A stretch of 27,429 bases of DNA from a virus (taxonomy: Duplodnaviria; Caudoviricetes): positions 1-27,429 of IMG/VR virus record IMGVR_UViG_3300012952_000102. One strand, given 5' to 3'. Below, piece by piece: positions 875-23,533 of the stretch; position 1 is the stretch's first letter, and each line of letters opens with the position of its first letter. The position numbers and the translations under genes were made by a program. The notes below the pieces were generated by a model. The model saw only the letters and a program-made list of their open reading frames with translations, was not told the DNA's origin and searched no databases.

Positions 875-1078
875 ATGCCCAACGTTGGTGGAAGAGAGTA
901 TCCGTACACGCCAGCCGGGATGGCGGCAGCGAAACAAGCTCGAGCTAAGCTTGGTGCCCAGGTGACTGATGCGGAGCGACGGCGATCAGCTAAACGGAAA
1001 AAATTACGAGATAGGTTGGGCATGAAGTTACGGCCCACTTCAGCGAGTCGTACTCAGTTTGGCGATTTTAGCGTTTAA
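875..1078 (+). CDS. small basic phage protein (67 aa)
   Basis: AGGAG at 865-869 before ATG 875 favours this start over 833. The N-terminus MPNVGGREYPYTPAGMAAAK resembles small basic proteins common in environmental phages. Confidence 0.75.
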   Translation: MPNVGGREYPYTPAGMAAAKQARAKLGAQVTDAERRRSAKRKKLRDRLGMKLRPTSASRTQFGDFSV

Positions 1079-1272
1079 TGAAGCTGACGACTGCAAAACG
1101 CAATCGTATGCGTTCAAGCTCGTTTGCGTTGCCAGAGCAGAGAGCGTATCCGATCAACGATAAAGCTCACGCTCGGAACGCATTGGCCCGGCTACACAAC
1201 GCGACACCAGCTGAGCAGAAAAGGATTAAGGCTGCGATCGACAAACGATACCCTGGGCTACGCAAGAAATAA
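1078..1272 (+). CDS. small basic phage protein (64 aa), FALP..YPI.D..HARNALAR type
   Basis: TAATG-coupled at both ends; recurrent phage motif SFALPEQRAYPINDKAHARNALAR. Confidence 0.8.
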   Translation: MKLTTAKRNRMRSSSFALPEQRAYPINDKAHARNALARLHNATPAEQKRIKAAIDKRYPGLRKK

Positions 1273-3104
1273 TGCCACACAGACCGTTCCATCGAGGGTT
1301 CGATTCTACTATTCCGTTACCAGACGACTACCGCCGTCGTTTACTGGCTATGCAGAATGGTGAGGATCAACAGACGCCACTCCAGACGCCTGGCTCACTT
1401 CTTTCTCAGGCACCCACCCCACCACCAGCTCGTCCAGTACGCGGATATCCGGAGCCACCACCGCCGACAGGGTTTGGACAGCCACCGATGTCGATATGGG
1501 AAGGAATGGATATTGCGGGCAAGCACACGTTAGGCAACGTGATGCAAGCAAACTTGACCGACCCACGGTTGCAACCAGAGCAATATCAGCAAGTTGCAGA
1601 CAACACTTTGAATGTTACTGGCGATATTTCACCTGGCATTGGTGAAGTTCGAGCGTTTCAGCGAATACCTGGGTTAATGGATGAAGGCAAAGTGGGTAGT
1701 GCAATCTTTGAAGGCACTACGGGTCTGCTCGGGTTGGTGCCGTATGTTGGTGGTGTGTTACAAGCTGGTGCGCGAGGCGGTAGGACTGCGCTGCGTAACT
1801 TGATGATTTCTCGAGCTGAGAGCGCGCTCGACCAATTACCAAAACGTACTAGAACGGAAACCGCTGCCCATCGTCGGCTAGAGCGTCATACAGCTTCGCC
1901 TGAAGCCGAAACTAGACGCGATCGTGCGATTGCTCGAGGGCAGACACCCGAAGAAGCTGAACTGCTGGCAAACTCGGCATCAGATGTTCGTGCTAACGTG
2001 CAACGTTTTTATTCGTTGTTGCCTACACCTAGAGCGTTTGCAGAAGCGGCTATTCGAGGCTCTGCTGCCCGTGGCTGGTATAAAGGCAGTGGACAAACGA
2101 TACGACAGTTGTTTGGTGAGGTAGACGCTCCACGCGCTACAGCGTTAATCGCAGCTCAAAGCCCGAACAAATCTGTTGAGGAAAACTTGCGGTATTCGTT
2201 AGCGACATGGCGCAATTGGGTTAATGCGGGCCGTCCCACAGATCCAGATGTGATTCGTCGATTGTCGCCCAGGGAAACCGTTGAATACATCGACAAAGGC
2301 AAACGCAAAACGAAACAAGTACCGACCGCTGACGCGATTATCCAGAGTCCACTCCAAGCCGATTACGAAAACACGATCCGGGCGCTGATCGCTACCGACG
2401 AAGTGTTAGCGAAAGGCGATCCACACCTACTTAGTGGCCCCAAGGTCGGTCCATTTTATGCGAACTTGCTAGGAGCTGTGTTGCCCGTAACAAACGACAC
2501 GCACATGGCTCGAGGCTATGGAACTAAACCTAGCGGTGTGGGCAGTGTGGCCCGGACACTGGCGCAAAACGCGATGATCGGGAACGCTGCTATTGAGTTT
2601 GAGCGAATTACAGGTGTGCCCGTAGATCGACGCGAAATCCAAGAAATGGCTTGGGCGTACATTCGTGGGCTGACAAACGCTGCGGGCAAAGACGGTAAAG
2701 CGCTTGATGTTTTAGAGCTGTCGCTCGTAGATCCCGATTTTAGAGTGCACAAGGCTCGACCCATTCAAGGTGGAAGATCAGTTGAACGTGGAGCACATTT
2801 AACACTGCACGATGAGATTGCGGATGCGGTGCCGATGGGTGAACTGTTAGCGCAACCACAATACGCGGATGTAATTGCTGAAATTGGGCTACCTACCCCG
2901 ATCGCACACCCGCCAACGGGCGTACAAGATCTTTCACCGTTTGCTGCTAATCCCAATGCTTTGCGGGATATCGCAGAACGTATTGACTTGGTTAAAGCTG
3001 GTAATCCGTTGTATAGCCTTGCGCCATTCTTGGCGGGTGGCGTAGCGGCTCAATACATGATGCCTAGACAAGAACAAGGCCCGTTTCCTGACGGTTATCG
3101 ATAA
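1272..3104 (+). CDS. 610-aa accessory protein A: Pro-rich N-terminus, shared module, HhH-GPD DNA-glycosylase-like domain
   Basis: Long ORF, TAATG-coupled. Motifs GWY, LIAAQSP, LSGPKVGPFYANLLG..PVTNDTHMAR and IQEMAW. The function is inferred. Confidence 0.6.
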   Translation: MPHRPFHRGFDSTIPLPDDYRRRLLAMQNGEDQQTPLQTPGSLLSQAPTPPPARPVRGYPEPPPPTGFGQPPMSIWEGMDIAGKHTLGNVMQANLTDPRLQPEQYQQVADNTLNVTGDISPGIGEVRAFQRIPGLMDEGKVGSAIFEGTTGLLGLVPYVGGVLQAGARGGRTALRNLMISRAESALDQLPKRTRTETAAHRRLERHTASPEAETRRDRAIARGQTPEEAELLANSASDVRANVQRFYSLLPTPRAFAEAAIRGSAARGWYKGSGQTIRQLFGEVDAPRATALIAAQSPNKSVEENLRYSLATWRNWVNAGRPTDPDVIRRLSPRETVEYIDKGKRKTKQVPTADAIIQSPLQADYENTIRALIATDEVLAKGDPHLLSGPKVGPFYANLLGAVLPVTNDTHMARGYGTKPSGVGSVARTLAQNAMIGNAAIEFERITGVPVDRREIQEMAWAYIRGLTNAAGKDGKALDVLELSLVDPDFRVHKARPIQGGRSVERGAHLTLHDEIADAVPMGELLAQPQYADVIAEIGLPTPIAHPPTGVQDLSPFAANPNALRDIAERIDLVKAGNPLYSLAPFLAGGVAAQYMMPRQEQGPFPDGYR

Positions 3105-3109
3105 AACAT

Positions 3110-6100
3110 ATGCCCCATAACCCTTGGCACCCAGCAGGGCTGTTAGGCCCAGATCCTCTTCCGAGTAGACGCAACAGAGACTACGCTCAATTACAAGGAA
3201 TCTTGATGGCCCAGCCCGACGCAACGCGGGTCGGTCCAGAGTTTCCCGTAGCTACGCACCGAAGGGGCGTCGATGGTGTGACGCGCCCAATCCGGTTACC
3301 CGAACGTGTCCCGGGTGAGGCGGCGATCGGCCCAGCTCCTGGTTTGTTGTCGCGGATCGGCGCTCAAGTACAAGCGATGCCTCGCCGGATGACTGAGTTT
3401 GGTGAAGGCGTCAAACACGGCCAAGGTCGATGGGCAATGCACGCAGCAGAGAATCTTCTACCAAATGAGCAATTTAGTCCATACGAACTCGCGGTTGTGG
3501 ATTCGATGGCTGCAGCAGGGACACCAGACACTCCAGCCGGCAAGGTAGGACGGTTTGGTGGAGAGATGGCGGGTGAGTTTACGTTGGCGGGGGATGCTCA
3601 AGCGCTACAACGTGTGCCTGGATTGCTAGAAGAGGGCGAGTATGGTCAAGCGACTCTTGAGGGGTTAAGTGCTATTCCAGTAGCTGGTGCGTTAGTTGGG
3701 CCGTTAGCTGCTATGGGCCGCTTGAACCGCGTGGGGTTAGACGCGATGAGCACATCGCGTTTAACAGAGGCAATCAAAAACGCGCCTCAAGATCGTGCGT
3801 CGGGATCGCAATGGGCTGGGATGATACGGAAAACACCTGGAGGTGTGCCGTCAGGTGAGATGGAATGGACGGGTATTACGGGGTTGTTAGGCGATAACCC
3901 GGATCGAGTGTTTACTCGAGACGAGTTGCTGCAAATAATGGACGAGCGAGGAGTCAAGCTCAGAGAATCATGGTATGGACGCTCGGGCGCTTCAGATGGA
4001 GTTGATCTTTATAAAGAAAGAGAACTTGCTCAAATGGATCTTGACGAAGCGAGAGAATTAACTCTAGAGGCGCAAGAAGAGTTTGGCTTAGAAAGTCGTG
4101 AGTATGCCGAAGCTGCACTACATGAAGGTGAAGTTCGAGCAGCACTTGGAGTGATACGACAAAAAATTCATGCGAATCAAGACAGTCCCCGCGCACTTTA
4201 TAGCAATTGGCGCATAGAGCGTAGCGACTACAACAAACCAACAAGGACTGTGTTTGGTCAAAGACCCCCCGAAAACTATCGGGAAGTTACCCTTCAGTTG
4301 GAAAGCCCAGGACAGAGTGCTCAAGCTGCTTCAAGGTTAGAGCAAGAGGATTTTTTGGCAAACGCTCTTCGCCGACATTGGGACATCAATGGTTATCCTG
4401 ACAGAACTGAGATACAGGCTCACTGGGCTGAAGGAACAAGTTGGGACGATGTCGCTCGTTCTGCGCTTGCAGATCCCGCTTATCGTGAAGAAGCTTTTGA
4501 CGCTTTAACAGATGCAGACCTGGAAAGATGGGATGAGCTGACTGATCGATCAGAGGGCTGGACACCTAGTGCTGAAGAAACGGCCAGAGGTGAGTATCAA
4601 AGTGTTCATTGGCCCGCTGACAAAAACGTGCTTGTGCATATGCGGATGTCAGATATTGAATACACAAATCCCGAAACAGGCAAACAAGAAAAAGTTTTGT
4701 TTCTCGAAGAGATCCAAAGCGATTGGCACCAAACAGGTCGCAAGAAAGGTTACCAAGAGCCTCGGACCCCAGACCCAGAAGAGGTCCAGAGAGCACAACA
4801 AAATTTAACTGACCTTTGGGATGAGAGATCCCTCGTCCAAGAGCGAATTGAAAAAGAAGTAATACCAGATCTTCTGTCAGATGCAGTAGACACAGCCACA
4901 ATGGCTGACGGCTCTATAATTCGTAGGCAACCAGATGGAACGTGGGTAGTAACGTATGCCGCTACTGATGAAATGTCTGGTTACGTCTACGAGAGCGGTA
5001 GTGATCTTTACAGAGATATGATTGAAAACGCGCAAGACTTGATTGAAAATGTTGATGAGGAGGCGGCATCTTTCTTGGGTGAGGGCGCAGTAACGTGGTC
5101 GCACTCAAATGACGCTAACGCAATAGTTTTTGAAACAAATGCCTATGGGGTAAATGAGGATATGTTTACCCGGTTTCCGTATCGTCAAGGTCAAAGTCCA
5201 ATGCTACCGCCTTCCAGCTGGACATTACCTCTCGGGGGTGCGCTTCGAAATAATCCGCTGATGGTCCGTTTGGCACAATTAAAACAAGGGGCTCGTAGCG
5301 GACAAGAATCTCTTCGTCGGGCCGAAGCAACCGTGAGTAATCCTGAACTTCCACCTCAAGGTCCATACGAAACAACTGGTGAGTGGACTGAACTTGCGTT
5401 GAGGCGAGCAATTCAAGAAGCAGTTGACGGTGGTTACGATCGCATAGCGTGGGCGCATGGGCGTCAAGCAGGTGAAGCTATGGGCGTTCGGGATTATGTA
5501 GATCAACTGCAATACGATACAAAAACAAATCGTCTGTACGGAACAGAAGCTGGCGAAGCTTTAGGTCTAAAAGTAGATGAGTTTGAAATTGATGGGATTG
5601 AAGTTTCGCCAGAAGATTTACCGTCAATCGTTGGGCAAGGAGTTGCGGAGCGGTTGTTGGATGCAGACCAAACTGGAGGAGTGAAGTGGCACATTGAAGA
5701 TTTAGGTCACACAATTGATGGAGAACCGCATATTGTAGTCACAGGCCAACGTCCAGGCCAAGTTGATTCACGCAGTGTGCAAGATTGGACTCTTATGCGC
5801 GGTGGCGAGTACATTGGGACCAAAGAATTTACTAGCATGGCTGATGCTGAAGAATGGATAGAACAGCAGAAAGGTATGCGGTTCTTGAATGAAGGTGGTT
5901 TGCGCGTTGGTGGCGAAGGGATGATAGGGTATTATGGCAAAATCGTCCCAAGAATAGCTCAAAAATACGGCAGACAACTAGAGGGTATTGAAATTGAGAA
6001 TGTTGATTTAGGGGTAGTGCCAACGACTAAAGGTCAGTGGTATATACGAGATACAGAAAGTGGCGGGGACGCATGGGGTCAACGTTTTGACACTCGAGCC

Positions 6101-6418
6101 GATGCAGATATTGCGTTAGACGATACCGCAATAGGACGAACGGGCCTTGGCGAAGACTTATCTGCGTTTGAGAAGTTGGAAGTTGCAAATTACGTTGGAG
6201 ATAACGCAGTTTATGAACATACTCCTGGCTCTAGGACATCTGGGTTAATGAATTTGTCTTTTGCTATTACGCCTGAAATGCGAAGAATAGTGGGCCAAGG
6301 CGACCAGAGGTTGTGGGGAGCAGGGGCGTTAGGGTTGTTAGGTGCTAACGCAGCAGCTCAAAGACAGAACGATGAGCAGAACCAAGGCAACGGACTTTTG
6401 ACACCGTCTAGACGCTAG
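3110..6418 (+). CDS. 1102-aa accessory protein B, large polyvalent-type phage protein (EEIQSDWH motif)
   Basis: Long ORF with motif blocks NYREVTL, HW..NVLVHMR, KVLFLEEIQSDWHQTGRKKGY, W.ELALRRAI..A...GYDRIAW and GGEGM..YY. Its stop overlaps the terL start (TAGTG). Confidence 0.65.
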   Translation: MPHNPWHPAGLLGPDPLPSRRNRDYAQLQGILMAQPDATRVGPEFPVATHRRGVDGVTRPIRLPERVPGEAAIGPAPGLLSRIGAQVQAMPRRMTEFGEGVKHGQGRWAMHAAENLLPNEQFSPYELAVVDSMAAAGTPDTPAGKVGRFGGEMAGEFTLAGDAQALQRVPGLLEEGEYGQATLEGLSAIPVAGALVGPLAAMGRLNRVGLDAMSTSRLTEAIKNAPQDRASGSQWAGMIRKTPGGVPSGEMEWTGITGLLGDNPDRVFTRDELLQIMDERGVKLRESWYGRSGASDGVDLYKERELAQMDLDEARELTLEAQEEFGLESREYAEAALHEGEVRAALGVIRQKIHANQDSPRALYSNWRIERSDYNKPTRTVFGQRPPENYREVTLQLESPGQSAQAASRLEQEDFLANALRRHWDINGYPDRTEIQAHWAEGTSWDDVARSALADPAYREEAFDALTDADLERWDELTDRSEGWTPSAEETARGEYQSVHWPADKNVLVHMRMSDIEYTNPETGKQEKVLFLEEIQSDWHQTGRKKGYQEPRTPDPEEVQRAQQNLTDLWDERSLVQERIEKEVIPDLLSDAVDTATMADGSIIRRQPDGTWVVTYAATDEMSGYVYESGSDLYRDMIENAQDLIENVDEEAASFLGEGAVTWSHSNDANAIVFETNAYGVNEDMFTRFPYRQGQSPMLPPSSWTLPLGGALRNNPLMVRLAQLKQGARSGQESLRRAEATVSNPELPPQGPYETTGEWTELALRRAIQEAVDGGYDRIAWAHGRQAGEAMGVRDYVDQLQYDTKTNRLYGTEAGEALGLKVDEFEIDGIEVSPEDLPSIVGQGVAERLLDADQTGGVKWHIEDLGHTIDGEPHIVVTGQRPGQVDSRSVQDWTLMRGGEYIGTKEFTSMADAEEWIEQQKGMRFLNEGGLRVGGEGMIGYYGKIVPRIAQKYGRQLEGIEIENVDLGVVPTTKGQWYIRDTESGGDAWGQRFDTRADADIALDDTAIGRTGLGEDLSAFEKLEVANYVGDNAVYEHTPGSRTSGLMNLSFAITPEMRRIVGQGDQRLWGAGALGLLGANAAAQRQNDEQNQGNGLLTPSRR

Positions 6419-7803
6419 TGGATTACGCCGAACAGCTAATTCTTATGCGGGAAGACCCAGTGCTTTTTGTTGAAGGCATTTTGGGAGCTGAGCCGGACAA
6501 ATGGCAAGCCGAAGTAATGACAGCGGTTGCTGCTGGATCTCGAGGAGTCAGTATCCGTTCAGGACACGGCGTTGGAAAAACAAGTTGCTTGTCCTGGCTG
6601 GCACTTTGGTGGATTGCTACGCATTATCATGCTAAGGTGGTGGTTACAGCACCAACGTCAGCCCAGCTTCAAGACGCTCTTCTGCCAGAGACGAAAGCGT
6701 GGCTAAAACAAGCACCTCGAGAATATCGAGAGATGTTTAACGTGAAAGCCGACCGAATCGAATTGGCAGCGGATCCGGAACGCAATTTTATATCTGCAAA
6801 AACGTCCCGGGCAGAGCAGCCCGATGCACTCCAGGGCGTACACGCAGACCATGTATTGTTGATTTGTGATGAGGCGAGCGGTGTACCCGAACAAGTGTAC
6901 GAAGCTGCGGGTGGATCGATGTCCGCTCACCACGCGACAATGGTGTTAGCTGGAAACCCTGTTCGCTCAAGCGGCTACTTTTACGACACGTTTCACAAAA
7001 TGTCAGACCGCTGGGATACGTTTCATGTGTCATGTGAAGACACAAAAAGAGTATCTCAAGAGTATATCGAAGAATGCCAGGTTCGGTACGGCGAAGAGAG
7101 TAACGTTTACCGTGTTCGGGTTCTCGGAGAGTTTCCCAGAGGCGATGATGATACGGTTATCCCCCAAGAGCTAATAACAGAAGCAATCAATCGAGATGTT
7201 GAGCCAACACAGTTTGGTTCAGTTGTGTGGGGTGTTGACGTAGCGCGGTTCGGCTCAGATGCGTCAGCACTTTGTAAACGCAAAGGCAACGCTATTACGG
7301 AACCTGTCAGGCTCTGGCGCAACCTGGACACTATGCAATTAACGGGGGCAATTAAGGCAGAATACGATTCCACCGAAGAGCGCCCAACAGAAATTTTTGT
7401 TGATGTGATCGGGTTAGGAGCTGGAGTCGTTGATCGATTGCGCGAATTAGGCTTACCAGCTTTTGGAATCAATGTCTCTGAGTCGCCAGCAATGGGAACG
7501 CAGTACATGAACTTGAGATCAGAACTCTGGTACAAGGCCAAAGCGTGGCTTGAGGGCAGAGATGTTCGTTTGCCTCGAGACGCAACACTAAAGACAGAAC
7601 TCGCTACAGTGCGTTACAATTATACGTCGAGCGGTCGGGTTAAGATCGAAAGCAAGGCCGAACTAAAAAAACGCGGGGTTGCAAGCCCGGATTCGGCTGA
7701 CGCTTTTGTTTTAACGTTCGCATCGGATGCGGGCACTGCGATCGGTGGCCGTAGCTATCGGCGTCAGGGTGAATTGAAAAGAAATCTGGCTGGAATTGTT
7801 TAA
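6418..7803 (+). CDS. terL: terminase large subunit
   Basis: Walker A SGHGVGKT, Walker B LLICDEASG, motif III AGNP and RNase H-like nuclease motifs GVDVARFGSD and SPDSADA. GTG start; lies upstream of the portal. Confidence 0.97.
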   Translation: MDYAEQLILMREDPVLFVEGILGAEPDKWQAEVMTAVAAGSRGVSIRSGHGVGKTSCLSWLALWWIATHYHAKVVVTAPTSAQLQDALLPETKAWLKQAPREYREMFNVKADRIELAADPERNFISAKTSRAEQPDALQGVHADHVLLICDEASGVPEQVYEAAGGSMSAHHATMVLAGNPVRSSGYFYDTFHKMSDRWDTFHVSCEDTKRVSQEYIEECQVRYGEESNVYRVRVLGEFPRGDDDTVIPQELITEAINRDVEPTQFGSVVWGVDVARFGSDASALCKRKGNAITEPVRLWRNLDTMQLTGAIKAEYDSTEERPTEIFVDVIGLGAGVVDRLRELGLPAFGINVSESPAMGTQYMNLRSELWYKAKAWLEGRDVRLPRDATLKTELATVRYNYTSSGRVKIESKAELKKRGVASPDSADAFVLTFASDAGTAIGGRSYRRQGELKRNLAGIV

Positions 7804-7967: not shown

Positions 7968-10034
7968 TTGGCAACATACATCGACGAAGCTGAGACTGAA
8001 GCTGGCGTTGGCATGACCGACGCAGAAATGCAAAGTACAGTGCGTTCGTATATTGAGGACGCAATTCAGTACATTGACGATGAGATTTCACCGCAACGCG
8101 CTGAAAGCTTGCGTTATTACCGTGGGCAACCGTTCGGTGATGAGGTTGTCGGTCGGTCCCAGGTAGTTTCTAGAGATGTACGCGATGCTGTCATGGCGGT
8201 GCTCCCGTCGATGATGCGCGTATTCTTTGGCAGCTCAAAAGCTGTAGAGTTTGTTCCGCGTACTGCCGAAGACGTAGGTATGGCAGAGCAAGCCACAGAT
8301 TATGTGAATCACATTGTGCAACAAGACAACAACGGTGTAGAAATTTTCTACAGCGTGTTTAAAGATGCACTAATGAACAAAGGCGGCTTCGTTAAATGGA
8401 GCTGGGATGACTCGCTCGAGGTGCATACCCACACATTTGAGGGCCTGGATGAAGGGACGCTAGGACTGCTGTTGCAAGAAGAAGGCGTAGAGGCTGTATC
8501 TGTCAGTGGTACACCCGTAGAGGGTATTACGCCCGAACAAGTAGCAGAACTTCAAGCGCAAGGGATGCCAGTCCCACAATTGTACGACGCAGAAATCAAA
8601 CGCTCGAGTAGGCGCGATCGTGTAAAAATCGAAACGATGCCGCCAGAAGAGTTTTTTGTCGATGGCGCAGCAACGAGCCTTGATGATGCTATGGTCGTCG
8701 GACATCGGACAATGGCAACCGTCAGCTCTTTGGTGGCGCTAGGCTACGATCTTGATTTGCTCGAAGATCATTTAAGCGACCAGGTTGGTTTTATTGATAG
8801 TGAGCTGTACGTCACTCGTACATCTTACGAAGAAAACCAGACGCCATTATCAGATTATGAACGGCGACGGGTGCTTTATTGTGAAGCGTGGTGTTACATC
8901 GATTACGATGGGGACGGGCTTGCTGAGTTACGGCGTGTCTGTACGATCGGTGACAATTATGAAGTCGTAAACAACGAACCAGCTGACATGATACCGTTCG
9001 CTGTGTTTAACGCAGATCCAGAACCTCATATGTTTTTCGGATCGGATTTAGCGGATCTTACGAAAGACATCCAGCGGATAAAGTCTGCAACCATTCGCGG
9101 TATGCTCGATTCGCTATCGTTTGCGTTGTATCCCCGGACGACCGTCGTTGAGGGTATGGTTGACCTTGATGACGTTATGAACCCAGAGGTTGGTTCAATC
9201 ATCAGAACGCGACAGCCTGGAATGATTCAGCAGATGAACGTACCATTTTTAGGCAAAGAAGCGTTTCCGATGGTTGCGTATCTTGATCAAATGAAAGAAG
9301 CTCGTACTGGTCAAACGGCTGCGTCACAAGGCTTAGATCCGGATGTGTTGCAAAGCACAACTCGAGCTGCGGTACAAGCTACAGTTAAGGGAGCTGAGCA
9401 ACATTTAGAGCTAATGGCTCGAATGTTTGCTGATGGCTTCAAACGTATGATGAAAGGTGTGTTGCATCTGGTCATTACACACCAAGACCGAGAGCGCGTG
9501 GTGCGTCTGCGCGACACCTGGGTGCCCATTGATCCGCGTGTGTGGGATTCCAACATGGATTGCTCAGTGAACGTAGGACTTGGGTCCGGCCTAACAGATG
9601 AAAAGCTGATGGTGTTGAACTCGGTCGCCACACAACAAAAAGAAATTTTGCAGACGATGGGACCAAGCAACGTGCTGGTTGGGTTAGGCCAGTTGCGAAA
9701 CACGTTAGCAAAAATGCTCGAGATTAGTGGGTTCAAGGATCCAAACCAGTTTTTTAAGCCTGTACCGTTGGATTACGAACCGCCACCGCCCCCGCCACCA
9801 GGGCCGACGCCAGAACAGCAGTTAATGGAAGTACAAATGGCTGATATCCAAGCGCGTCAACAGATTGAACAGCAAAAACTTCAACTAGCAGCTATGAAAC
9901 AACAGCAGCTCGATGAACGTGAAAGTGCTCGGATCGCTGGGGATTTATCAATTCGGGAATTCCAGGCCGAACAAAAGTTTCAAGATGATGTTGAATTGGA
10001 AGTTGTTAAAGCCAGCTTGAAAGAAGGCTTATGA
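7968..10034 (+). CDS. portal protein (P22/SU10-like)
   Basis: 688 aa after terL; motifs YYRGQPFG.E..GRSQVVSRDVRD, AEQATDYVN, PPEEF and C-terminal poly-Pro plus coiled coil. TTG start. Confidence 0.93.
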   Translation: MATYIDEAETEAGVGMTDAEMQSTVRSYIEDAIQYIDDEISPQRAESLRYYRGQPFGDEVVGRSQVVSRDVRDAVMAVLPSMMRVFFGSSKAVEFVPRTAEDVGMAEQATDYVNHIVQQDNNGVEIFYSVFKDALMNKGGFVKWSWDDSLEVHTHTFEGLDEGTLGLLLQEEGVEAVSVSGTPVEGITPEQVAELQAQGMPVPQLYDAEIKRSSRRDRVKIETMPPEEFFVDGAATSLDDAMVVGHRTMATVSSLVALGYDLDLLEDHLSDQVGFIDSELYVTRTSYEENQTPLSDYERRRVLYCEAWCYIDYDGDGLAELRRVCTIGDNYEVVNNEPADMIPFAVFNADPEPHMFFGSDLADLTKDIQRIKSATIRGMLDSLSFALYPRTTVVEGMVDLDDVMNPEVGSIIRTRQPGMIQQMNVPFLGKEAFPMVAYLDQMKEARTGQTAASQGLDPDVLQSTTRAAVQATVKGAEQHLELMARMFADGFKRMMKGVLHLVITHQDRERVVRLRDTWVPIDPRVWDSNMDCSVNVGLGSGLTDEKLMVLNSVATQQKEILQTMGPSNVLVGLGQLRNTLAKMLEISGFKDPNQFFKPVPLDYEPPPPPPPGPTPEQQLMEVQMADIQARQQIEQQKLQLAAMKQQQLDERESARIAGDLSIREFQAEQKFQDDVELEVVKASLKEGL

Positions 10035-11326: not shown

Positions 11327-12331
11327 ATGGCAGTTGTATCAAACACTTTTCTCACCTACGATGCCAAAGGGTTGCGTGAGGATCTATCAGACTTGATCGC
11401 TGATATTTCCCCGACGCAGACGCCGTTTCAAAGCAATATCGGCACCCGGGACGCATCAGCAGTTTATTTTGAATGGCAAACAGACTCACTTTCTGCGGCG
11501 ACCGCTGCAGGAGTGGTCGAAGGCCAAGATCTCAGCAGCTATACTGCGGTAACCCCGACAGCTCGTATGGGGAACTATTGCCAGATCAATATGCGCGATT
11601 TCATCATCTCGGGCACTGAGCAAGCAGTAGATAAAGCTGGTCGGGCATCCGAAGTTGGATACCAGGCAGCAAAAGCTGCAAAAGAACTAAAGCGGAACGT
11701 CGAAAAGGCGTGTCTACAGAACGCTGGTGCTGTCGCTGGTGCGACCGCAACCGCTCGAGTCACCGCTGGGTTCCCTGGTTGGATTAAAACCAACGAAACT
11801 TCCACGAACGTAACCAAGCCGTCGTACACGGGTTCAACCCCGACAGGCGCAACCCAAGTGTGGAAGTCGTTTGGTACACCAACCGCGTTTACCGAAGCTA
11901 TGCTCAAAACCACGATGCAAGAGTGTTTTGTCAGTGGTGGAGAGCCGACGATGCTTATGGTTTCTCCGTTCAACAAGACACAAGTAAGTGGCTTTAGCGG
12001 CATTGCTTCTAGCCGTTACAATGTGGACGGTGCCGAGCCTTCGGTGATTATCGGAGCAGCAGACATTTATGTTTCTGACTTCGGTAATCTGTCAGTTGTT
12101 CCGAACCGCTTCTTTACGACGGTAGAGGACGAGGGATCCGGTTCACTGCACAACGACTGGGCGCTACTCATCGATCCAGATGAGGTTAAACTCGCTACTC
12201 TTCGTCCGTATGCTATCGAGGCGTTGGCCCGTAGTGGTGACGCTGATAAGCGTATGGCGTTGGTCGAGTGGGGGCTTCAGGTTAGCAACGAAGCAGCCCA
12301 CGGTGTTATTGCTGGCATTACTGCGGCCTAA
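11327..12331 (+). CDS. major capsid protein (SU10/DUF5309-like)
   Basis: 334 aa; GLREDLSDLI.DISPT.TPF, FEWQTDSL, NYCQI, Y.SDFG and LA.SGD..K....EWGL motifs. Confidence 0.93.
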   Translation: MAVVSNTFLTYDAKGLREDLSDLIADISPTQTPFQSNIGTRDASAVYFEWQTDSLSAATAAGVVEGQDLSSYTAVTPTARMGNYCQINMRDFIISGTEQAVDKAGRASEVGYQAAKAAKELKRNVEKACLQNAGAVAGATATARVTAGFPGWIKTNETSTNVTKPSYTGSTPTGATQVWKSFGTPTAFTEAMLKTTMQECFVSGGEPTMLMVSPFNKTQVSGFSGIASSRYNVDGAEPSVIIGAADIYVSDFGNLSVVPNRFFTTVEDEGSGSLHNDWALLIDPDEVKLATLRPYAIEALARSGDADKRMALVEWGLQVSNEAAHGVIAGITAA

Positions 12332-17575: not shown

Positions 17576-17814
17576 GCACCTCGGGAGCGTCCGCATCGCG
17601 TCGGCTACGTTTACCGCCTCCTGCTCAAGCGTATGATTCGCGTTCAGAAATTGAACGCAATCGAGCACTTGAGTCAGCCGATCGCGCCAACTTAAAACGA
17701 TTTGAAGACGTAGATCTAGCCAACAACGAACGATTGATTCTGGTAAGCGCTAACGGCACTCGTTACAGTTTAATAGTGTCAAATGCAGGGGTGCTTAGCA
17801 CTTCTGCGGTATGA
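17572..17814 (+). CDS. small virion-associated protein
   Basis: ATGA overlap; C-terminal LILVSANGTRY.L.VSN.G.L beta motif common in tail proteins. Confidence 0.7.
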   Translation: MSTSGASASRRLRLPPPAQAYDSRSEIERNRALESADRANLKRFEDVDLANNERLILVSANGTRYSLIVSNAGVLSTSAV

Positions 17815-18224
17815 TGTCGAACACGTTAGAAGGTTTTGATGAAGCGTGGACGAAAAGCACACCGTTTATTGAAAAAGCGTTAAAAGAAAACGGTGCAGAG
17901 TTTACTGTTGAAGATGTTTTGCGAGAAGTGCAGGATGAGCAAGCAATTTTTTATCCTGTCACAAATGGCGCAGCGATTTTTACGGTCGCGCAGTACCCGC
18001 AACGGCGATTGTTGCGAATATGGCTTTACGGTGGAAAAACAGATACGGGTCGAGCAAACCTAGATGTCATTATGGAAGCAGCAGATTACTTCGCAGAAAA
18101 ACACGAATGTGATGGCGTTGAGCTGACAGGCAGGAAAGGTTGGGAGAAAGTTTTGCATCCTTACGGTTATAAATACAAAAGCGTTACGCTAAGCAAGGAT
18201 TTAGGAGAGCACGGGAATGGCTAA
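17811..18224 (+). CDS. GNAT-like virion assembly protein (inferred)
   Basis: YPQRR.L.IWL.GG ... C.GVEL.GRKGW.KVL...GY pattern; sits between the nozzle and ejection genes. Confidence 0.6.
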   Translation: MMSNTLEGFDEAWTKSTPFIEKALKENGAEFTVEDVLREVQDEQAIFYPVTNGAAIFTVAQYPQRRLLRIWLYGGKTDTGRANLDVIMEAADYFAEKHECDGVELTGRKGWEKVLHPYGYKYKSVTLSKDLGEHGNG

Positions 18225-19965
18225 GAACGACAATTCAATGGAAAACATGAGGCTAACAAACGTTAGTCAGCAGGATCCGTTAAGCCAAGCTCGAGAACTT
18301 CAGTTGTGGCAGCAAGCTCAAATGTATGCTGGGCAACGACCATTTAGTCAGCAATATGTCGGGCCAGATGGGACTTCAGCAGTGCCCGGCTTTACTGGTC
18401 TACAAAGTCAAGCACAAGACTATTTAGGGTCAGCAATTTTTGGCAATCAGTATTCGCCAGAAAACTTAGGGTTTACTGGGTATACGCGCCCTGAAGGTGT
18501 TGCTGGTTCTCCAAGTTTTGCATTTACGCAAAATCAAATCAATCCAAGCCAAGTCGATCCTTGGAATCCCGCACCTCCACCTGTTCCGACGACACCAGGT
18601 GCGCCACCACCAGTTGGGCCGTGGAACCCTCCGACACCACCACCGCCAGTGCCTGGTGGCCCTCCGGGCGGTGATCCTTCAGATCCTCCAGTAATCGGTG
18701 GACCGTATGTGCCCACCCCGCCGGGTGGTCCGACTGTTCCGCCTCCAACTACAGTCAAGCCGTCACCTGGTGACGTAAACGTAGGAATGGGTGGGGCACT
18801 TTATCGCGACCCGTCACTAGCAAAACCAACTGGTTTTTCTAGCGACCCTGCGACACTTGCTCGACAACAAGCACAGCAAGCACAGTTTATGGCAAGCTCA
18901 CAGGTAAACCCTGTTACTGGTCAACGGGAAATGATAGGGGGGACCGCAGATGTTTTAGGAGGCGATAGGACGAGAACAGCAAGCCAAATGGCTGTGCCAA
19001 CAGATCCAATGGCAGGAATTAAATACGCTGACTCTCGTTTTGGCTATGCAAAGGCACCCGCTGGACCAGATTTTATGCCCCAGCCGATGCCACAACCGTC
19101 ACCAGACATAATGCCGCAGCCTGTCGGACCGTTAATGCCTGAGACGCCAATAGAGATAGCACCCCCACCCCCACCTGCACCGCCTATATCACAACCTTCT
19201 GAGGGTCAAGGATATTTACGACCTGGCGAAATGGGTACTAGCCCTACAGTAGGTTTAAATCCAATTCAGTTAAGCCAGATGGCTAACCGAAGGATGCTTG
19301 AAGAAGCTCAAGGTCCGATGGCGACCACTTCGTCGATTTTTGATGATCCGCGCACGGTTGAGGATTACATGAATCGGATCGGCGTAGATGCACAACGGGC
19401 ACAAGCTCAAGATGATTACGAGCGCATTCAAAATCAAATACAAGCAACGCAAGCTGGAACTGGTGCGTTTGCTTCTACTAATGCTCGAGGCGAGCTTCAA
19501 AATGTTCAAGCTGGTAGTGATCACTTACGAAACTTGGCAGCTATAGAAGGCGCTGGGTATCGAGATGCTGCTGCGGCGATGCGAGAAGCTGCTGCGGCTC
19601 GTACCGATACGTCTCGTCTCAACGTTGACGCTGCAACAGAGTTTCGACGCCAACAAGCTGCGTTAGCTGATCAGTACGCAGATCTTGGGTTACGCGAACA
19701 AGGTGCAACGTTTGCTGCAGGAGATGTTGCTAGAGGCTTAGGGCAAGACCAACGCGACGTTCGAGTGCAACAAGCCGCTCAAGATTACGAACAGTGGTTA
19801 CGAGGCCAGCAAGGTGGCGCAGAGGCGATGGCTCTGATGCGTGGAATGTTGCCAGGGGCTGGATATCAAACCTATGAGCGCAAGCCTAGCGTCTGGGGTC
19901 AAATCGGAGCCTTCGCGTTAAACGCAGCAAACACTGCCTCTAGATTCAAAAACCCGACTGCCTAA
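18217..19965 (+). CDS. probable ejection / internal virion protein 1, Pro-rich
   Basis: Q/A/G-rich helical C-terminal half (AGTGAFASTNARG), two Pro-rich tracts; gene position; GGAGAG upstream. Confidence 0.65.
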   Translation: MAKNDNSMENMRLTNVSQQDPLSQARELQLWQQAQMYAGQRPFSQQYVGPDGTSAVPGFTGLQSQAQDYLGSAIFGNQYSPENLGFTGYTRPEGVAGSPSFAFTQNQINPSQVDPWNPAPPPVPTTPGAPPPVGPWNPPTPPPPVPGGPPGGDPSDPPVIGGPYVPTPPGGPTVPPPTTVKPSPGDVNVGMGGALYRDPSLAKPTGFSSDPATLARQQAQQAQFMASSQVNPVTGQREMIGGTADVLGGDRTRTASQMAVPTDPMAGIKYADSRFGYAKAPAGPDFMPQPMPQPSPDIMPQPVGPLMPETPIEIAPPPPPAPPISQPSEGQGYLRPGEMGTSPTVGLNPIQLSQMANRRMLEEAQGPMATTSSIFDDPRTVEDYMNRIGVDAQRAQAQDDYERIQNQIQATQAGTGAFASTNARGELQNVQAGSDHLRNLAAIEGAGYRDAAAAMREAAAARTDTSRLNVDAATEFRRQQAALADQYADLGLREQGATFAAGDVARGLGQDQRDVRVQQAAQDYEQWLRGQQGGAEAMALMRGMLPGAGYQTYERKPSVWGQIGAFALNAANTASRFKNPTA

Positions 19966-21881
19966 TGTCTTACACTACTCCACAACAATGGCTTGCGATG
20001 CTGCGGAGCCATCCGAACCAGAGAGTTACCAGTTTTCGCGATAGTGGCCCGGGCGGGATCTTGGATGCTACGGGTGGTTTTGCTACGCGCTCGAGCGTTA
20101 ATCCAAGTAGAGATTGGCGCACGATGTTGGCAGATTTTGAAACTATTAACAGCCTCAGACAGCCCCCTGGAGGTCCTCAAGCCCAACAACAGTTAACGGG
20201 ACCGCGAAATGTGCGAGAAACGTTAGCGATGGCCCCAGGCAGTTTTGTAGCTGAGACAGAGGTTGAACCATTTGGTCCTTCGTTAGATCGTACCCCACCG
20301 ATTATTCCGGATTACGATCCATCGATGATGGAAGGAATGTTCCCTGGTTCACGGGCAACAGACGCGAACGCAGCTATGATGAACCTTCAGTTACCTGAAC
20401 AGATCGGAGCTGAAGATGGGCCGCAGGGATTTTTTAGCCGGATCTCTTCGTATTTCGGTGAGAATCCAGAAGTTTTAGGTGCGACCGCAGCCCGTATGTC
20501 GGAAGTAGCCAGCCAACCAGGTGCCTCATTTTTACAATCACTCAACGCGGGCATCGGAGCTGGAGTCCAGCAATCGGCTGTAAACAAAGCAGCCCAAACC
20601 GCTCAAGAGCGGTATGACAATCAATTGCAACTAGCAAGGCTAAATCAAGCAAATGAGGTTGCCGCTCGAGAAGCTGCGCTTCGTGCGATGTTTGAGAAAT
20701 ACGGCGTTGATGATGACATTCGAGCGCAATTGATAGGATCTGCTAGAGACGAAACAGCTTTTGCAGAAGTTATGGATATGTTTGAGCCAACTCCGGCAGC
20801 TTCAACGCCTGGAGGGCTTCAAGTGGCTGAGGCGCTAATAGCAACGGAGAAAAGAATTCGTGATCTAGAGGCTATCGATCCAGCGCAACGTACCACACAG
20901 GACGAAGAAGAACTGGCCGACGCCAAAGCTGCACTCCCGTACTTGGAACGTGCCCAGACACCGCTACCGTCAGGTCCAGCGCTTCCACCTAATGTGCGAG
21001 CAGAGGACACCATACATGATGTAGCGGAAGACATTTACGCTCATCACCGCCTAGGCACATACAGACCGAACATATCGCCAGTACCGCCAGAAGCGTATCG
21101 ATATCAAGCTAGAATAGATCTACTACCAGAAGCTCTAAAAGTGCTAGACAACGATAAAGCTACTGAGTTAGGCGCTTGGAATAGTGGTGGTAGCACAGCC
21201 CATCGAGTGAAACTCGAAAAGTTTGATGAGCTGATCAATTATCTTTCCCAAGACCCTGAAGAACAAGAAGTAACAGGTGCAATGCTTCAACTTTTCAGAG
21301 AAATTGTTGGAGAAACTGTGTTTGCAGGAGTAGAAGTAGACGCAGTTGATGCTCGTAACTTGGTTGAAAGCATTGTTTTTGAAACGTTGCGCGAAACACT
21401 TGGCCCAGCGTTTACTCAAGCAGAAGGTGAAAATTTAGTTGCGGCCTCGTATAACCCTGCATTGCCACCCGCAACCAACCTTCGGCGCATACGGAAACTG
21501 CAAAGCGCTGCGCTAGAGAGTGGTCAACTAAAAGACGCTGAGTCTCGTTATCTGCGAGAATATGAAACTATGGGTGGATACCATGATTATATGTCAGGGG
21601 CGTTCTCTCATGCCCAACCTGACCCAGCCGATGCTCAATTGTACGAACGTTTTGTTATTCGACCAGGCGAATCATCTGCATTGCTTGCAGACTTGATTGA
21701 TCCTAGCGATTACACAGGCTTGTCAGATGAAGCCCGTACACAGGCTATTAACGCCGACGTAGCAGCATTAGGTCCGCGAAACGTCATATCACTAGCAGAG
21801 CGTTTGAGAGCCGAAGGGATGTCTCCAAGCGATCCACTAATGTCAGCGTTGTTAGCTGAAATAAATCGAGGAAGATTTTAA
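19965..21881 (+). CDS. probable ejection / internal virion protein 2
   Basis: 638 aa, TAATG-coupled; ETLRETLGPAFTQAEGENL...YNP.L motif; gene position. Confidence 0.65.
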   Translation: MSYTTPQQWLAMLRSHPNQRVTSFRDSGPGGILDATGGFATRSSVNPSRDWRTMLADFETINSLRQPPGGPQAQQQLTGPRNVRETLAMAPGSFVAETEVEPFGPSLDRTPPIIPDYDPSMMEGMFPGSRATDANAAMMNLQLPEQIGAEDGPQGFFSRISSYFGENPEVLGATAARMSEVASQPGASFLQSLNAGIGAGVQQSAVNKAAQTAQERYDNQLQLARLNQANEVAAREAALRAMFEKYGVDDDIRAQLIGSARDETAFAEVMDMFEPTPAASTPGGLQVAEALIATEKRIRDLEAIDPAQRTTQDEEELADAKAALPYLERAQTPLPSGPALPPNVRAEDTIHDVAEDIYAHHRLGTYRPNISPVPPEAYRYQARIDLLPEALKVLDNDKATELGAWNSGGSTAHRVKLEKFDELINYLSQDPEEQEVTGAMLQLFREIVGETVFAGVEVDAVDARNLVESIVFETLRETLGPAFTQAEGENLVAASYNPALPPATNLRRIRKLQSAALESGQLKDAESRYLREYETMGGYHDYMSGAFSHAQPDPADAQLYERFVIRPGESSALLADLIDPSDYTGLSDEARTQAINADVAALGPRNVISLAERLRAEGMSPSDPLMSALLAEINRGRF

Positions 21882-23533
21882 TGCCTCATAACGCTTTTCA
21901 TGCTACGCCTGGCTTGCTGTCCCCACCTCGCCCAGCTCAACAAGCTGCCTCGGTTGACGATGACGATTATTGGGCAGATGTCTTGTCCAATGCTGGCCCT
22001 TCAACAGTACAATTGCTTAAAGATTTGATTCAACCGTTTGTGCATCCGATTGAAACGTTTGAGGGTCTAAAGAGTTTAGCTACTGACGCAGAAACTCAAG
22101 CAGCAGTGGGCGAATATCTAAGTGATCAATATGGTAGCATAGACGCTATTCAAGCATCGTTCCGGGAAAATCCAGTTGGAGTGGCATCAGACGTTCTTGG
22201 AATGATTTCACTGGTTTCGCCCGCTGCTGGGTTTGGTGCTGCCAGGTTAACGGGTAAAGCAGCAACAATGGCGGGTAAGGTAGCTGATATCTCACGCACG
22301 GTCGGAAAACTGGATCCAGCCTTTCAAGCGGTAAATTTGCCCGTCCAAGGTGTTCGATTGCCTTTTTCGAATTTGCAAACGCCAAACATCCGTTCTGCGT
22401 TACCAGCAATAACTGGAGTAACCACGGGTGTCGGAACGGGCACCGCTGCTCGAGCGTTAGAAACTGGTTTAGAGGGAGGCGCTCGAGGGACAGCGTTCAG
22501 GACGGGCATAAGAGGAAGTTCAGACGTTACTGACTTGGTCAATCGGTTGAGAAGTGAGTTAGATAGGATTGGATCTCGCCGTCGCGCAAAATACAAGCAA
22601 CAAAAATCTCAACTAGCAAACAGCGTAGTAGATCCCTCTGAAATACGAAACGTAATAGACAATCTCCGGGCCGAACGGTTAGCAGGAGGAGGTCCAGACG
22701 CTGGAGACAAGATCCTTGCTCGGTTAAAGCAAATTGAAGATTTGCTTGACGATCGAGTTGCTCGAGGCGACAACACTGTAGTTGGGATGGACACGTTAAA
22801 GCAAAACATTCGCGACTTGTCTTCTAGAAACATGGGTGAAATAGATCCAGCTTCAGCAATTACGATGCGGATTGCGGATTCTATTGGCGAAGAAATTGGC
22901 AAAGTTGATGCTCGTTATATCGAAATGATGAAAGATTACGAGCTGGCTAAGGCGTTAGAGACTGAACTGCGAACAGCATTTGCATCCAGAAACAATAATG
23001 TTGCCCAACAAGCGATGAAACGCTTAATGCAAGCGACCCGTGAGAACGTAAACTCAGACATGGGTGGCTTAGCGGATATGTTAGAAGGCATCGACCCGTT
23101 GTTACTAGATGAAGTGTCTGGTCGGGCAATGAATCCTCTTGCTCCCGTAGGTATACAGCGGACAGTAGCGGGTGGATTATTCGGAGGCGCACTTGGTTAC
23201 GATCCGGGACGCTTGCCAAGGATGCTTCCATCAATGGCGATGACAAGCCCACGGTTAGTAGGCGAAACATTGCACGGTATAGGAAGGACTACAAGTGCTG
23301 TTGCGCCTGTCGTACCAGCGGGCATTCGGGCAGCACGGCAAGCAGGGATTGCATCGCAAATTCCGTACGCTCCAGGGCAAAACCCAAGGCAAGAGCAAGG
23401 GCTGACTCGACAGCCAATAATGCCAGGGGGACCAACAAGCGGCGCGACATATGACGATCTTGTAGTATCACCAGAGCTTCAAGATCTGTTGGAAGAATGG
23501 AAGCGTTCTAACTCAGACGTTAGAAGAAGATGA
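21881..23533 (+). CDS. probable ejection / internal virion protein 3
   Basis: 550 aa, TAATG-coupled; ENPVGV..D and SPRLVGE motifs typical of such proteins; MPHNAFH N-terminus. Confidence 0.65.
   Translation: MPHNAFHATPGLLSPPRPAQQAASVDDDDYWADVLSNAGPSTVQLLKDLIQPFVHPIETFEGLKSLATDAETQAAVGEYLSDQYGSIDAIQASFRENPVGVASDVLGMISLVSPAAGFGAARLTGKAATMAGKVADISRTVGKLDPAFQAVNLPVQGVRLPFSNLQTPNIRSALPAITGVTTGVGTGTAARALETGLEGGARGTAFRTGIRGSSDVTDLVNRLRSELDRIGSRRRAKYKQQKSQLANSVVDPSEIRNVIDNLRAERLAGGGPDAGDKILARLKQIEDLLDDRVARGDNTVVGMDTLKQNIRDLSSRNMGEIDPASAITMRIADSIGEEIGKVDARYIEMMKDYELAKALETELRTAFASRNNNVAQQAMKRLMQATRENVNSDMGGLADMLEGIDPLLLDEVSGRAMNPLAPVGIQRTVAGGLFGGALGYDPGRLPRMLPSMAMTSPRLVGETLHGIGRTTSAVAPVVPAGIRAARQAGIASQIPYAPGQNPRQEQGLTRQPIMPGGPTSGATYDDLVVSPELQDLLEEWKRSNSDVRRR

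Follow-up and report, generated by a model that had tools for sequence, protein, structure and literature searches.

The viral DNA analysed here (the window: positions 1 to 27,429 of IMG/VR record IMGVR_UViG_3300012952_000102, Caudoviricetes) is a 27.4 kb record of a podophage with an SU10-type portal, estimated to be about 76% complete and with its large genes all on one strand; the genes of the slot, its borders and the virion proteins located below lie, with their parts, on the plus strand. Two genes occupy a slot directly ahead of the terminase gene: gene A (1272..3104, 610 aa) and gene B (3110..6418, 1102 aa). Each encodes a leader with a His-rich start and GLL motifs, a hairpin module present in both proteins, a payload (HhH-GPD-like in A; GNAT-fold-like and split by large insertions in B) and a hydrophobic tail. 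The slot is bordered upstream by a small basic gene of the DUF6582 family (1078..1272), conserved and found also in phages whose slot is empty, and downstream by the gene for the terminase large subunit (6418..7803). The junctions are tight: A's ATG overlaps the upstream stop, 5 nt separate A from B, and B's stop overlaps the terminase start. In relatives of this phage the slot is dispensable and the payload is exchanged just behind the module. The genomic context suggests that A and B are virion cargo, a reading that we consider probable.

An earlier note on this DNA, made from the sequence alone, had proposed that A (1620-1754) and B (3572-3691) share a module; the translations of these segments exactly match the stretches quoted there. 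BLASTP aligns the two proteins with 26 of 71 residues identical (E 2e-7) in the sole significant segment. The Smith-Waterman score is 100, against a mean of 44 (sd 5.6, max 72) in shuffled controls, and none of 1000 shuffles reaches it, nor do any of 1000 local shuffles (max 84). The shared core stands, but the extent of 40 residues assigned to it does not, the module being longer (about residues 105-173 of A, 1584..1790, and 139-207 of B, 3524..3730). As also stated in the note, the two copies differ synonymously: the 26 ungapped core codons include 13 that specify identical residues, nine of them through different codons, and 45 of 78 bases match. No DNA repeat links A to B in the window. 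The leaders are Pro-rich as described (19% Pro in A residues 1-105, 13% in B residues 1-140). At the other end, both proteins have the Gly/Ala hydrophobic segment (3009..3065 in A, 6311..6358 in B), but the tail described as Q-rich is so only weakly, Gln making up 6% of A's last 50 residues and 14% of B's last 42; tails of relatives are mostly Arg/Glu-rich, not Gln-rich. A hydrophobic tail occurs in 17 of the 28 distinct C-termini of module proteins.

Terminase-anchored scans and whole records yielded 108 loci, 58 of which were distinct at a terminase identity of ≥72%; 42 slots were readable and placed in a tree, and 21 had both borders. The record of the window itself (L218) was left out of all counts. 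The 21 fully seen slots hold two module genes (4 cases), one (7), a lysozyme gene without the module (3) or none (7). All 20 module genes with a seen terminase occupy the same pre-terminase slot. Paired cargo genes are 5-38 nt apart (6 pairs) and the cargo-to-terminase gap is ≤60 nt at 11 of 20 loci. The slot of one sub-clade (L117:7966-8715, L249:9195-10001, L263:825-1604, L204) is taken up by a lysozyme-like gene that has terminal GLL motifs and lacks the module. One 59.8 kb record (G001; L198-L200) holds two terminase-portal-capsid sets and probably represents two phages joined in assembly.

Exchange of the payload can be followed in individual pairs. Protein P0022 is 81% identical to B over residues 1-208 and beyond that point follows the payload of L082; L082 and L118 are 74% identical, with the identity confined to the module. 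L106 and L121 are 94% identical in nucleotides as far as ten codons beyond the module; nothing matches in the payload, and the terminase is 98% identical. In the terminase tree (42 rows) payloads vary between sisters, near-identical terminases included: L106, L121 and L102 bear three different ones, L087/L088, L226 and L228 differ likewise, and L118 and L233 have an ADP-ribosyltransferase (ART) where their sisters are empty. Since swapped pairs differ behind the module, the module is not always tied to the same C-terminus; it is joined to many different C-terminal domains, exchanged directly behind it, and the swappable payloads proposed in the earlier note are borne out. Conserved leader and module DNA on one side and the terminase gene on the other would provide the recombination arms for swapping. 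That DNA identity ends just behind the module in swapped pairs would also suit a module that survives from a gene duplication as an arm for recombination and is devoid of a role of its own. We consider this extremely improbable, as A and B keep residues while their codons differ (9 of 13) and the module pattern is kept across phages and bacteria (see below). In L102 (1189-3231) the linker that directly follows the module occurs as a repeat (codons 275-297), possibly the scar of a domain insertion. As to the integrity of the region in the window, one contig in public sequence, probably its source, spans it unbroken, three runs from a second study contain it in fragments, no RNA data set was among the listed carriers, and the reads showed no joint at the module.

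The payload of A (residues 251-522, 2022..2837) is predicted, from a structural model (pLDDT 89.7), to adopt the fold of HhH-GPD glycosylases. Among the top 22 VIA-align matches, 20 bear the title of a DNA glycosylase or an EndoIII/MutY-type enzyme (best Z 9.2, root-mean-square deviation (rmsd) 3.6, 185 residues aligned); structure neighbours among viral models include proteins named ART-PolyVal and LPD. Two residues, Lys391 (2442-2444) and Asp409 (2496-2498), are invariant in 17 of 17 sequences. They lie 18 residues apart, the spacing of K120 and D138 in EndoIII. The predicted fold and a putatively equivalent Lys/Asp pair relate A to HhH-GPD glycosylases (EndoIII, OGG, MutY), from which it differs in being at most about 14% identical, in having no sequence-level match and in being fused to a delivery-type module. 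The model predicts that A is a base-excising DNA glycosylase/apurinic-apyrimidinic (AP) lyase. In Pfam the payload matches DUF7178 below the cut-off (E 8.6e-5). Other slot payloads form five further groups, two of which match A's profile (97% and 64%) and one does so via another group (98%). A match of A's C-terminal part to uS11 in the sequence search of the PDB (E 0.001) was taken as chance.

For the payload of B (residues 216-1060, 3755..6289) the fold was approached through a compact homologue, L045 (model pLDDT 81.9). Nearly all of the top 50 matches of this model bear titles of GNAT-fold proteins (best Z 10.7, rmsd 3.8, 154 aligned) and weaker Foldseek rows are GNATs as well, so that B is predicted to be a GNAT-fold transferase. 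An invariant EEIQSDWHQ block (4706..4732) is atypical for GNAT; reading EEIQSD as the mark of a PD-(D/E)xK nuclease was dropped after the GNAT-fold structure matches. Members of B's family reach 5200 aa and adjoin the terminase or portal in many podophages, and one of them (P0026) joins a B-type domain to ART-PolyVal. B's domain may be one of the GNAT families of Iyer et al. (PMC5512222), possibly the first, which is described there as adjoining ART in an uncultured marine phage. In another podophage lineage (L045, L017, L046, L035, L069, L070 and others) the terminase and portal genes are separated by two large variable genes, of which the second encodes a B-type domain and lacks the module.

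Several results count against these two enzyme assignments. Foldseek gave no match in the PDB at E ≤0.001 for either the A or the L045 model; in sequence searches of the PDB, A matched no glycosylase, the B family no GNAT and the module nothing. Values of Z between 9 and 11 are moderate for large helical models, and the folds are those of predicted models, in the case of B that of a homologue only 24% identical to it. Two payload subfamilies, d and e, match A's weakly or not at all (HHalign 4% and 0.3%).

The module is more widespread than the clade. Its profile retrieves 300 proteins at E ≤0.001 among 1.84 billion representatives, and the tallies that follow cover 143 new top matches among these. 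Pfam finds ART-PolyVal in 20 (E ≤0.001), tail lysozyme in 6, DUF7178 in 5, GNAT in 2 and eCIS-core in 2; our own profiles add 18 HhH-like and 7 B-type domains. The module begins within the first 250 residues in 128 of 142 matches. In the slot proper, ART-PolyVal is above cut-off in 3 of 20 proteins scanned. A and B each have one recognised enzyme, and relatives combine them (L215, B-type and HhH-like; P0100, GNAT and ART; P0026, above). The payloads of 187 carriers fall into 55 single-linkage clusters, an overcount since fragments are included. A second class of module proteins (P0066, P0075, P0098, P0117, P0131, P0134, P0145 and others) has a repeated xGGxV motif, often 2-3 module copies and, in six, a tail lysozyme; the motif is possibly another lineage's signal for loading or cleavage.

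As to what the module is, the earlier note had likened it to PT-TG pre-toxin modules. By eye there is a resemblance, namely a helix-turn-helix ending in Pro-x-Gly plus a basic helix, ahead of a payload. Membership in PT-TG (PF14449) was not borne out: Pfam finds the family in 0 of 23 members and nowhere in the genome, and HHalign gives 0.4-1.3% against nine PT-TG sequences (those of 9 out of 14 loci). The TG loop is present in 0 of 24 phage modules, but the strict pattern finds only 2 of the 9 PT-TG stretches, which makes the profile comparison the weightier of the two. In the ESM Atlas a PT-TG cluster came up at 0.83, with all scores <0.9, and is a lead only.

Weak matches in two eCIS-core proteins led to 41 bacterial loci, of which 36 were used in the alignment and 24 scanned for domains. 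The phage module aligns to the 36 bacterial stretches with HHalign values of 95.9-96.6% (E 5e-9 to 6e-10), against 2.9-8.3% for reversed controls, and the bacterial hairpin reaches 37.5 bits, reversed forms no more than 10.7. In the 24 scanned carriers the hairpin lies between Rhs repeats and PT-HINT or a toxin, between PAAR-like/TssD and Rhs regions, after eCIS-core, or after PT-VENN in a CdiA-like protein. As judged by profile comparison, the module matches, as apparent kin, the hairpin that precedes toxin domains in proteins of Rhs, type VI secretion system (T6SS), extracellular contractile injection system (eCIS) and CdiA type. Because these machines have no common loading apparatus, the module more likely serves a shared later step, such as crossing or anchoring in the target membrane.

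A comparison with FIX suggests itself here. FIX is also a short module ahead of exchangeable toxin domains, and in RhsF it sits between the PAAR-like/TssD and Rhs regions (PMC13324451), a position like that of the bacterial hairpin in L305 and L306; the analogy is one of position only. The two differ in that FIX is reported as T6SS-linked (PMC6688995, PMC13324451), whereas the hairpin described here is found in phages, Gram-positive Rhs, eCIS and CdiA proteins. The window has no T6SS genes, and only 2 of the 24 bacterial carriers have PAAR-like or TssD domains. CDD lists similar hairpins as FIX-like.

Downstream from the slot the gene order is terminase, SU10-type portal (7968..10034; PF23899, E 8e-198), scaffold, SU10-type major capsid protein (11327..12331; PF17236), adaptor, fibre, a virion structural protein taken as the nozzle, three genes named E1 to E3, and lysis genes. 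E1 (18217-19965) and E2 (19965-21881) are large, unannotated and putatively ejection genes by position; E3 (21881..23533), likewise large and unannotated, is the third gene of this presumed ejection slot. E3 starts MPHNAFH, with GLL at residue 11, and so shares with A (MPHRPFH, 1272..1292) and B (MPHNPWH, 3110..3130) the beginning MPH-x-x-(F/W)-H, encoded by different codons and preceded by unrelated DNA. In another genome the cargo starts MHRGQPH and E3 MHQGVPH. Across the clade a His-rich start is found in 19 of 24 module proteins, 2 of 12 E2, 2 of 12 E3 and 0 of 247 proteins of 14 other gene classes (a direct scan for E3 gave no relatives, which were reached through the nozzle gene). GLL occurs 85 times in module proteins against 10.6 expected (eightfold) and 28 times in E3 against 7.9 (3.5-fold), and is absent from capsid, scaffold, terminase and nozzle. 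The module, for its part, was not found in E1, E2, E3, portal and capsid (HHalign <0.5%), the terminase, the slot lysozymes or a 1555-aa protein of genome G006 described below, nor in HTVC028P gp33/gp34 or PH1. Being the only feature that joins slot proteins to presumed ejection proteins, the His/GLL leader is the better candidate for a loading signal, and we take it as a lead to that signal.

Alternatively, the hairpin itself could be the packaging tag, docking on portal, scaffold or core. Its constant company with the pre-terminase slot would fit, as would the example of FIX, which in a comparable position is needed for T6SS secretion and not for toxicity (PMC6688995, PMC13324451). However, E1-E3, portal, capsid, slot lysozymes and the G006 protein lack the module, and ejection-slot proteins and some slot proteins have the His start or GLL without it. 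Moreover, the same hairpin serves four unrelated bacterial delivery systems that have no portal, in keeping with a common step such as membrane passage. A tag role for the hairpin is therefore unlikely.

The inference of the earlier note that A and B are packaged in the virion is favoured by context. Besides the shared leader motifs, the late operon is fused to the terminase, and B-type domains lie in internal-virion positions, as in gp34 of Pelagibacter phage HTVC028P, which is flanked by genes with the annotations internal protein A and internal virion protein. Translational coupling to the terminase would also be expected of late, membrane-anchored enzymes of the infected cell that are not packaged and that keep superinfecting phages out or modify DNA where it is packaged; the two hydrophobic segments could be plain anchors, and a phage thymidine-modifying transferase weakly shares A's fold (8z2m, Z 4.5). 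This explanation seems to us distinctly unlikely, given that the start motif and GLL are shared only with ejection-slot proteins, that B-type domains lie in internal-virion positions elsewhere, and that a case for carriage in the virion has been made for ART-PolyVal and such multidomain late proteins (PMC5512222, section 32).

Two other arrangements bear on this subject. In genomes G004 and G006 (L205, L206, L215) the order is ejection-slot genes, 1555-aa protein, terminase; the protein combines B-type and HhH-like domains, keeps an internal copy of the tail motif and looks like two cargo genes fused. In crassvirus cr56_1, gp73 (NC_055890.1, L331:11919-13448, with TAG read through), which has close homologues in 8 records, contains the module, a YADGG motif and HExxH, and lies between portal and capsid genes. 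The accessible account of the crAss001 structure (PMC10172136) does not mention a module-type protein.

Some observations speak against delivery by leader and hairpin. The His and GLL patterns were defined after being seen, in sequences that are related and not independent. Ten of the 12 E3 proteins lack the His start, and only 10 of the 143 wider matches have it, 11 showing repeated xGGxV instead; the signal would accordingly be clade- or lineage-specific. The hairpins are of moderate hydropathy (19-residue maxima of 1.33 and 1.56, compared with 1.38 in the capsid protein), and 11 of the 28 module proteins have no hydrophobic tail. The bacterial set was seeded from one of the profile's own matches and is thereby enriched for likeness. 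Lastly, tblastn of A's payload against 50,697 phage records gave no match, so that no cultured phage with this payload was found, and queries with the module found only crassvirus and unannotated records plus one weak match.

The earlier note had also invoked polymorphic toxins of the MuF type, in which a killing toxin would be paired with a cognate immunity protein. The combination of a conserved N-terminal part and a variable C-terminal part, the pre-toxin-like hairpin and the ART payloads are all in the spirit of such a system. Yet neither A, B nor the slot proteins have a MuF domain in Pfam, PHROGs or NCBIfam, and the short spacings (5-38 nt in the 6 pairs; ≤60 nt to the terminase at 11 of 20 loci, the 9 longer gaps not having been searched for tiny genes) leave little space for partner genes. 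In the window there is no room for an immunity gene between A, B and the terminase, in agreement with the note's own remark that none is adjacent; the DUF6582 gene upstream flanks empty slots too and is thus not a cognate immunity gene. For the window, the toxin-immunity reading is largely refuted, and we rate it as very improbable. MuF toxins of temperate phages (PMC12226406) resemble A and B in joining a conserved N-terminal part to a variable enzyme next to head genes and in being thought to ride in the head; the present proteins differ by the absence of the MuF domain and of immunity genes, by often being two tandem paralogues and by a slot that can be empty.

Closer parallels are offered by polyvalent proteins (PMC5512222). 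These are large proteins from the late regions of phages, bearing ART-PolyVal, GNAT, lysozyme and metallopeptidase domains; they are argued to be packaged and injected, and mosaic orthologues and solo versions of them are described. By the same marks, A and B are encoded among the late virion genes of a portal-terminase phage, and domains of the polyvalent repertoire occur in slot proteins (ART-PolyVal) and, as a predicted GNAT fold, in B's family. What sets them apart is that the available text of that study mentions neither a hairpin common to the N-termini, nor a fixed place before the terminase, nor an HhH-GPD payload. Podophage ejection proteins, such as T7 gp16, the five ejected proteins of SU10 (gp20-24) and the crAss001 cargo (PMC8954989, PMC9509320, PMC10172136), are head-stored, as proposed here for A and B, and released before the DNA, and SU10 shares portal and capsid families with the window phage. 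Ejection proteins are essential parts of the conduit, in a gene block of their own, whereas A and B are optional, variable enzymes before the terminase.

Taken as accessory, virion-packaged and co-ejected enzymes of the polyvalent-protein kind, with a leader that likely packages and a hairpin that likely aids membrane passage, A and B would work as follows; we regard this fuller account as about an even bet. Both proteins would be loaded into the head, the disordered leader with its His-rich start and GLL motifs serving as the signal, and would then leave it alongside the ejection proteins, acting during the opening minutes of infection. The hydrophobic hairpin would help the payload to pass through the inner membrane of the host or to anchor there, and the C-terminal hydrophobic segment could be a second anchor, reminiscent of the two membrane regions that surround the cytoplasmic domain of T7 gp16 (PMC8954989). 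The likely purpose would be conflict with host defences or rival phages (through base excision or modification, ADP-ribosylation and acylation) rather than killing. The main alternative is that A repairs the incoming genome; rapid exchange among glycosylase-like groups, ARTs and GNATs fits an arms race better than routine repair. A more ambitious version, which we put forward as a doubtful though conceivable extension, is that of a plug-and-play injection slot of podophages with a two-part code, in which the His/GLL leader loads any protein, the hairpin of Rhs/T6SS/eCIS/CdiA type crosses the inner membrane, and diversifying DNA glycosylases, directed at modified bases in host or rival-phage DNA, are the most frequent payloads.

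Other features of the window can be recorded briefly. Throughout the clade the slot is preceded by two conserved small basic genes, phrog_33179 (875-1078) and the DUF6582 gene (1078-1272). Ahead of the late operon, non-coding DNA contains an exact 23-nt direct repeat (525-547 and 604-626, 79 apart), itself composed of shorter repeats and a candidate origin, packaging or regulatory site. Directly before E1 lies a small clade-conserved gene (17811-18224) without a Pfam match, in the position of the putative acetyltransferase of HTVC028P. Promoter and terminator counts in the window were at chance level, PADLOC returned 0 of 9, and NCBIfam gave no match for A or B.

The literature searched, outside which most subscription papers lay, contained no paper describing, in its title or the opening of its abstract, a slot like this one, nothing on PT-TG in phage virions and no mention of DUF7178. 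As far as these searches reach, the fixed and swappable pre-terminase slot, the kinship of its module with the bacterial pre-toxin hairpin, the glycosylase fold predicted for DUF7178 payloads and the leader that slot and ejection-slot proteins have in common are new. The natural series of swaps separates three candidate parts, leader, hairpin and payload, and so makes it directly testable with fusions how short-tailed phages choose the proteins stored in their heads and pass them through the host membrane. The findings connect enzymes that phages presumably inject with a pre-toxin hairpin, as yet without a name, that occurs in bacterial toxin systems; if the two-part code is true, phage ejection and four bacterial toxin systems would have one translocation module in common, and phages would possess a portable loading signal. 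They also suggest a function for DUF7178 and make the module a marker by which further effector domains of phages can be discovered. A defensive role against phages is beginning to be recognised for glycosylases (bioRxiv 10.1101/2025.10.29.685425), and phage-delivered glycosylases would be the mirror case.

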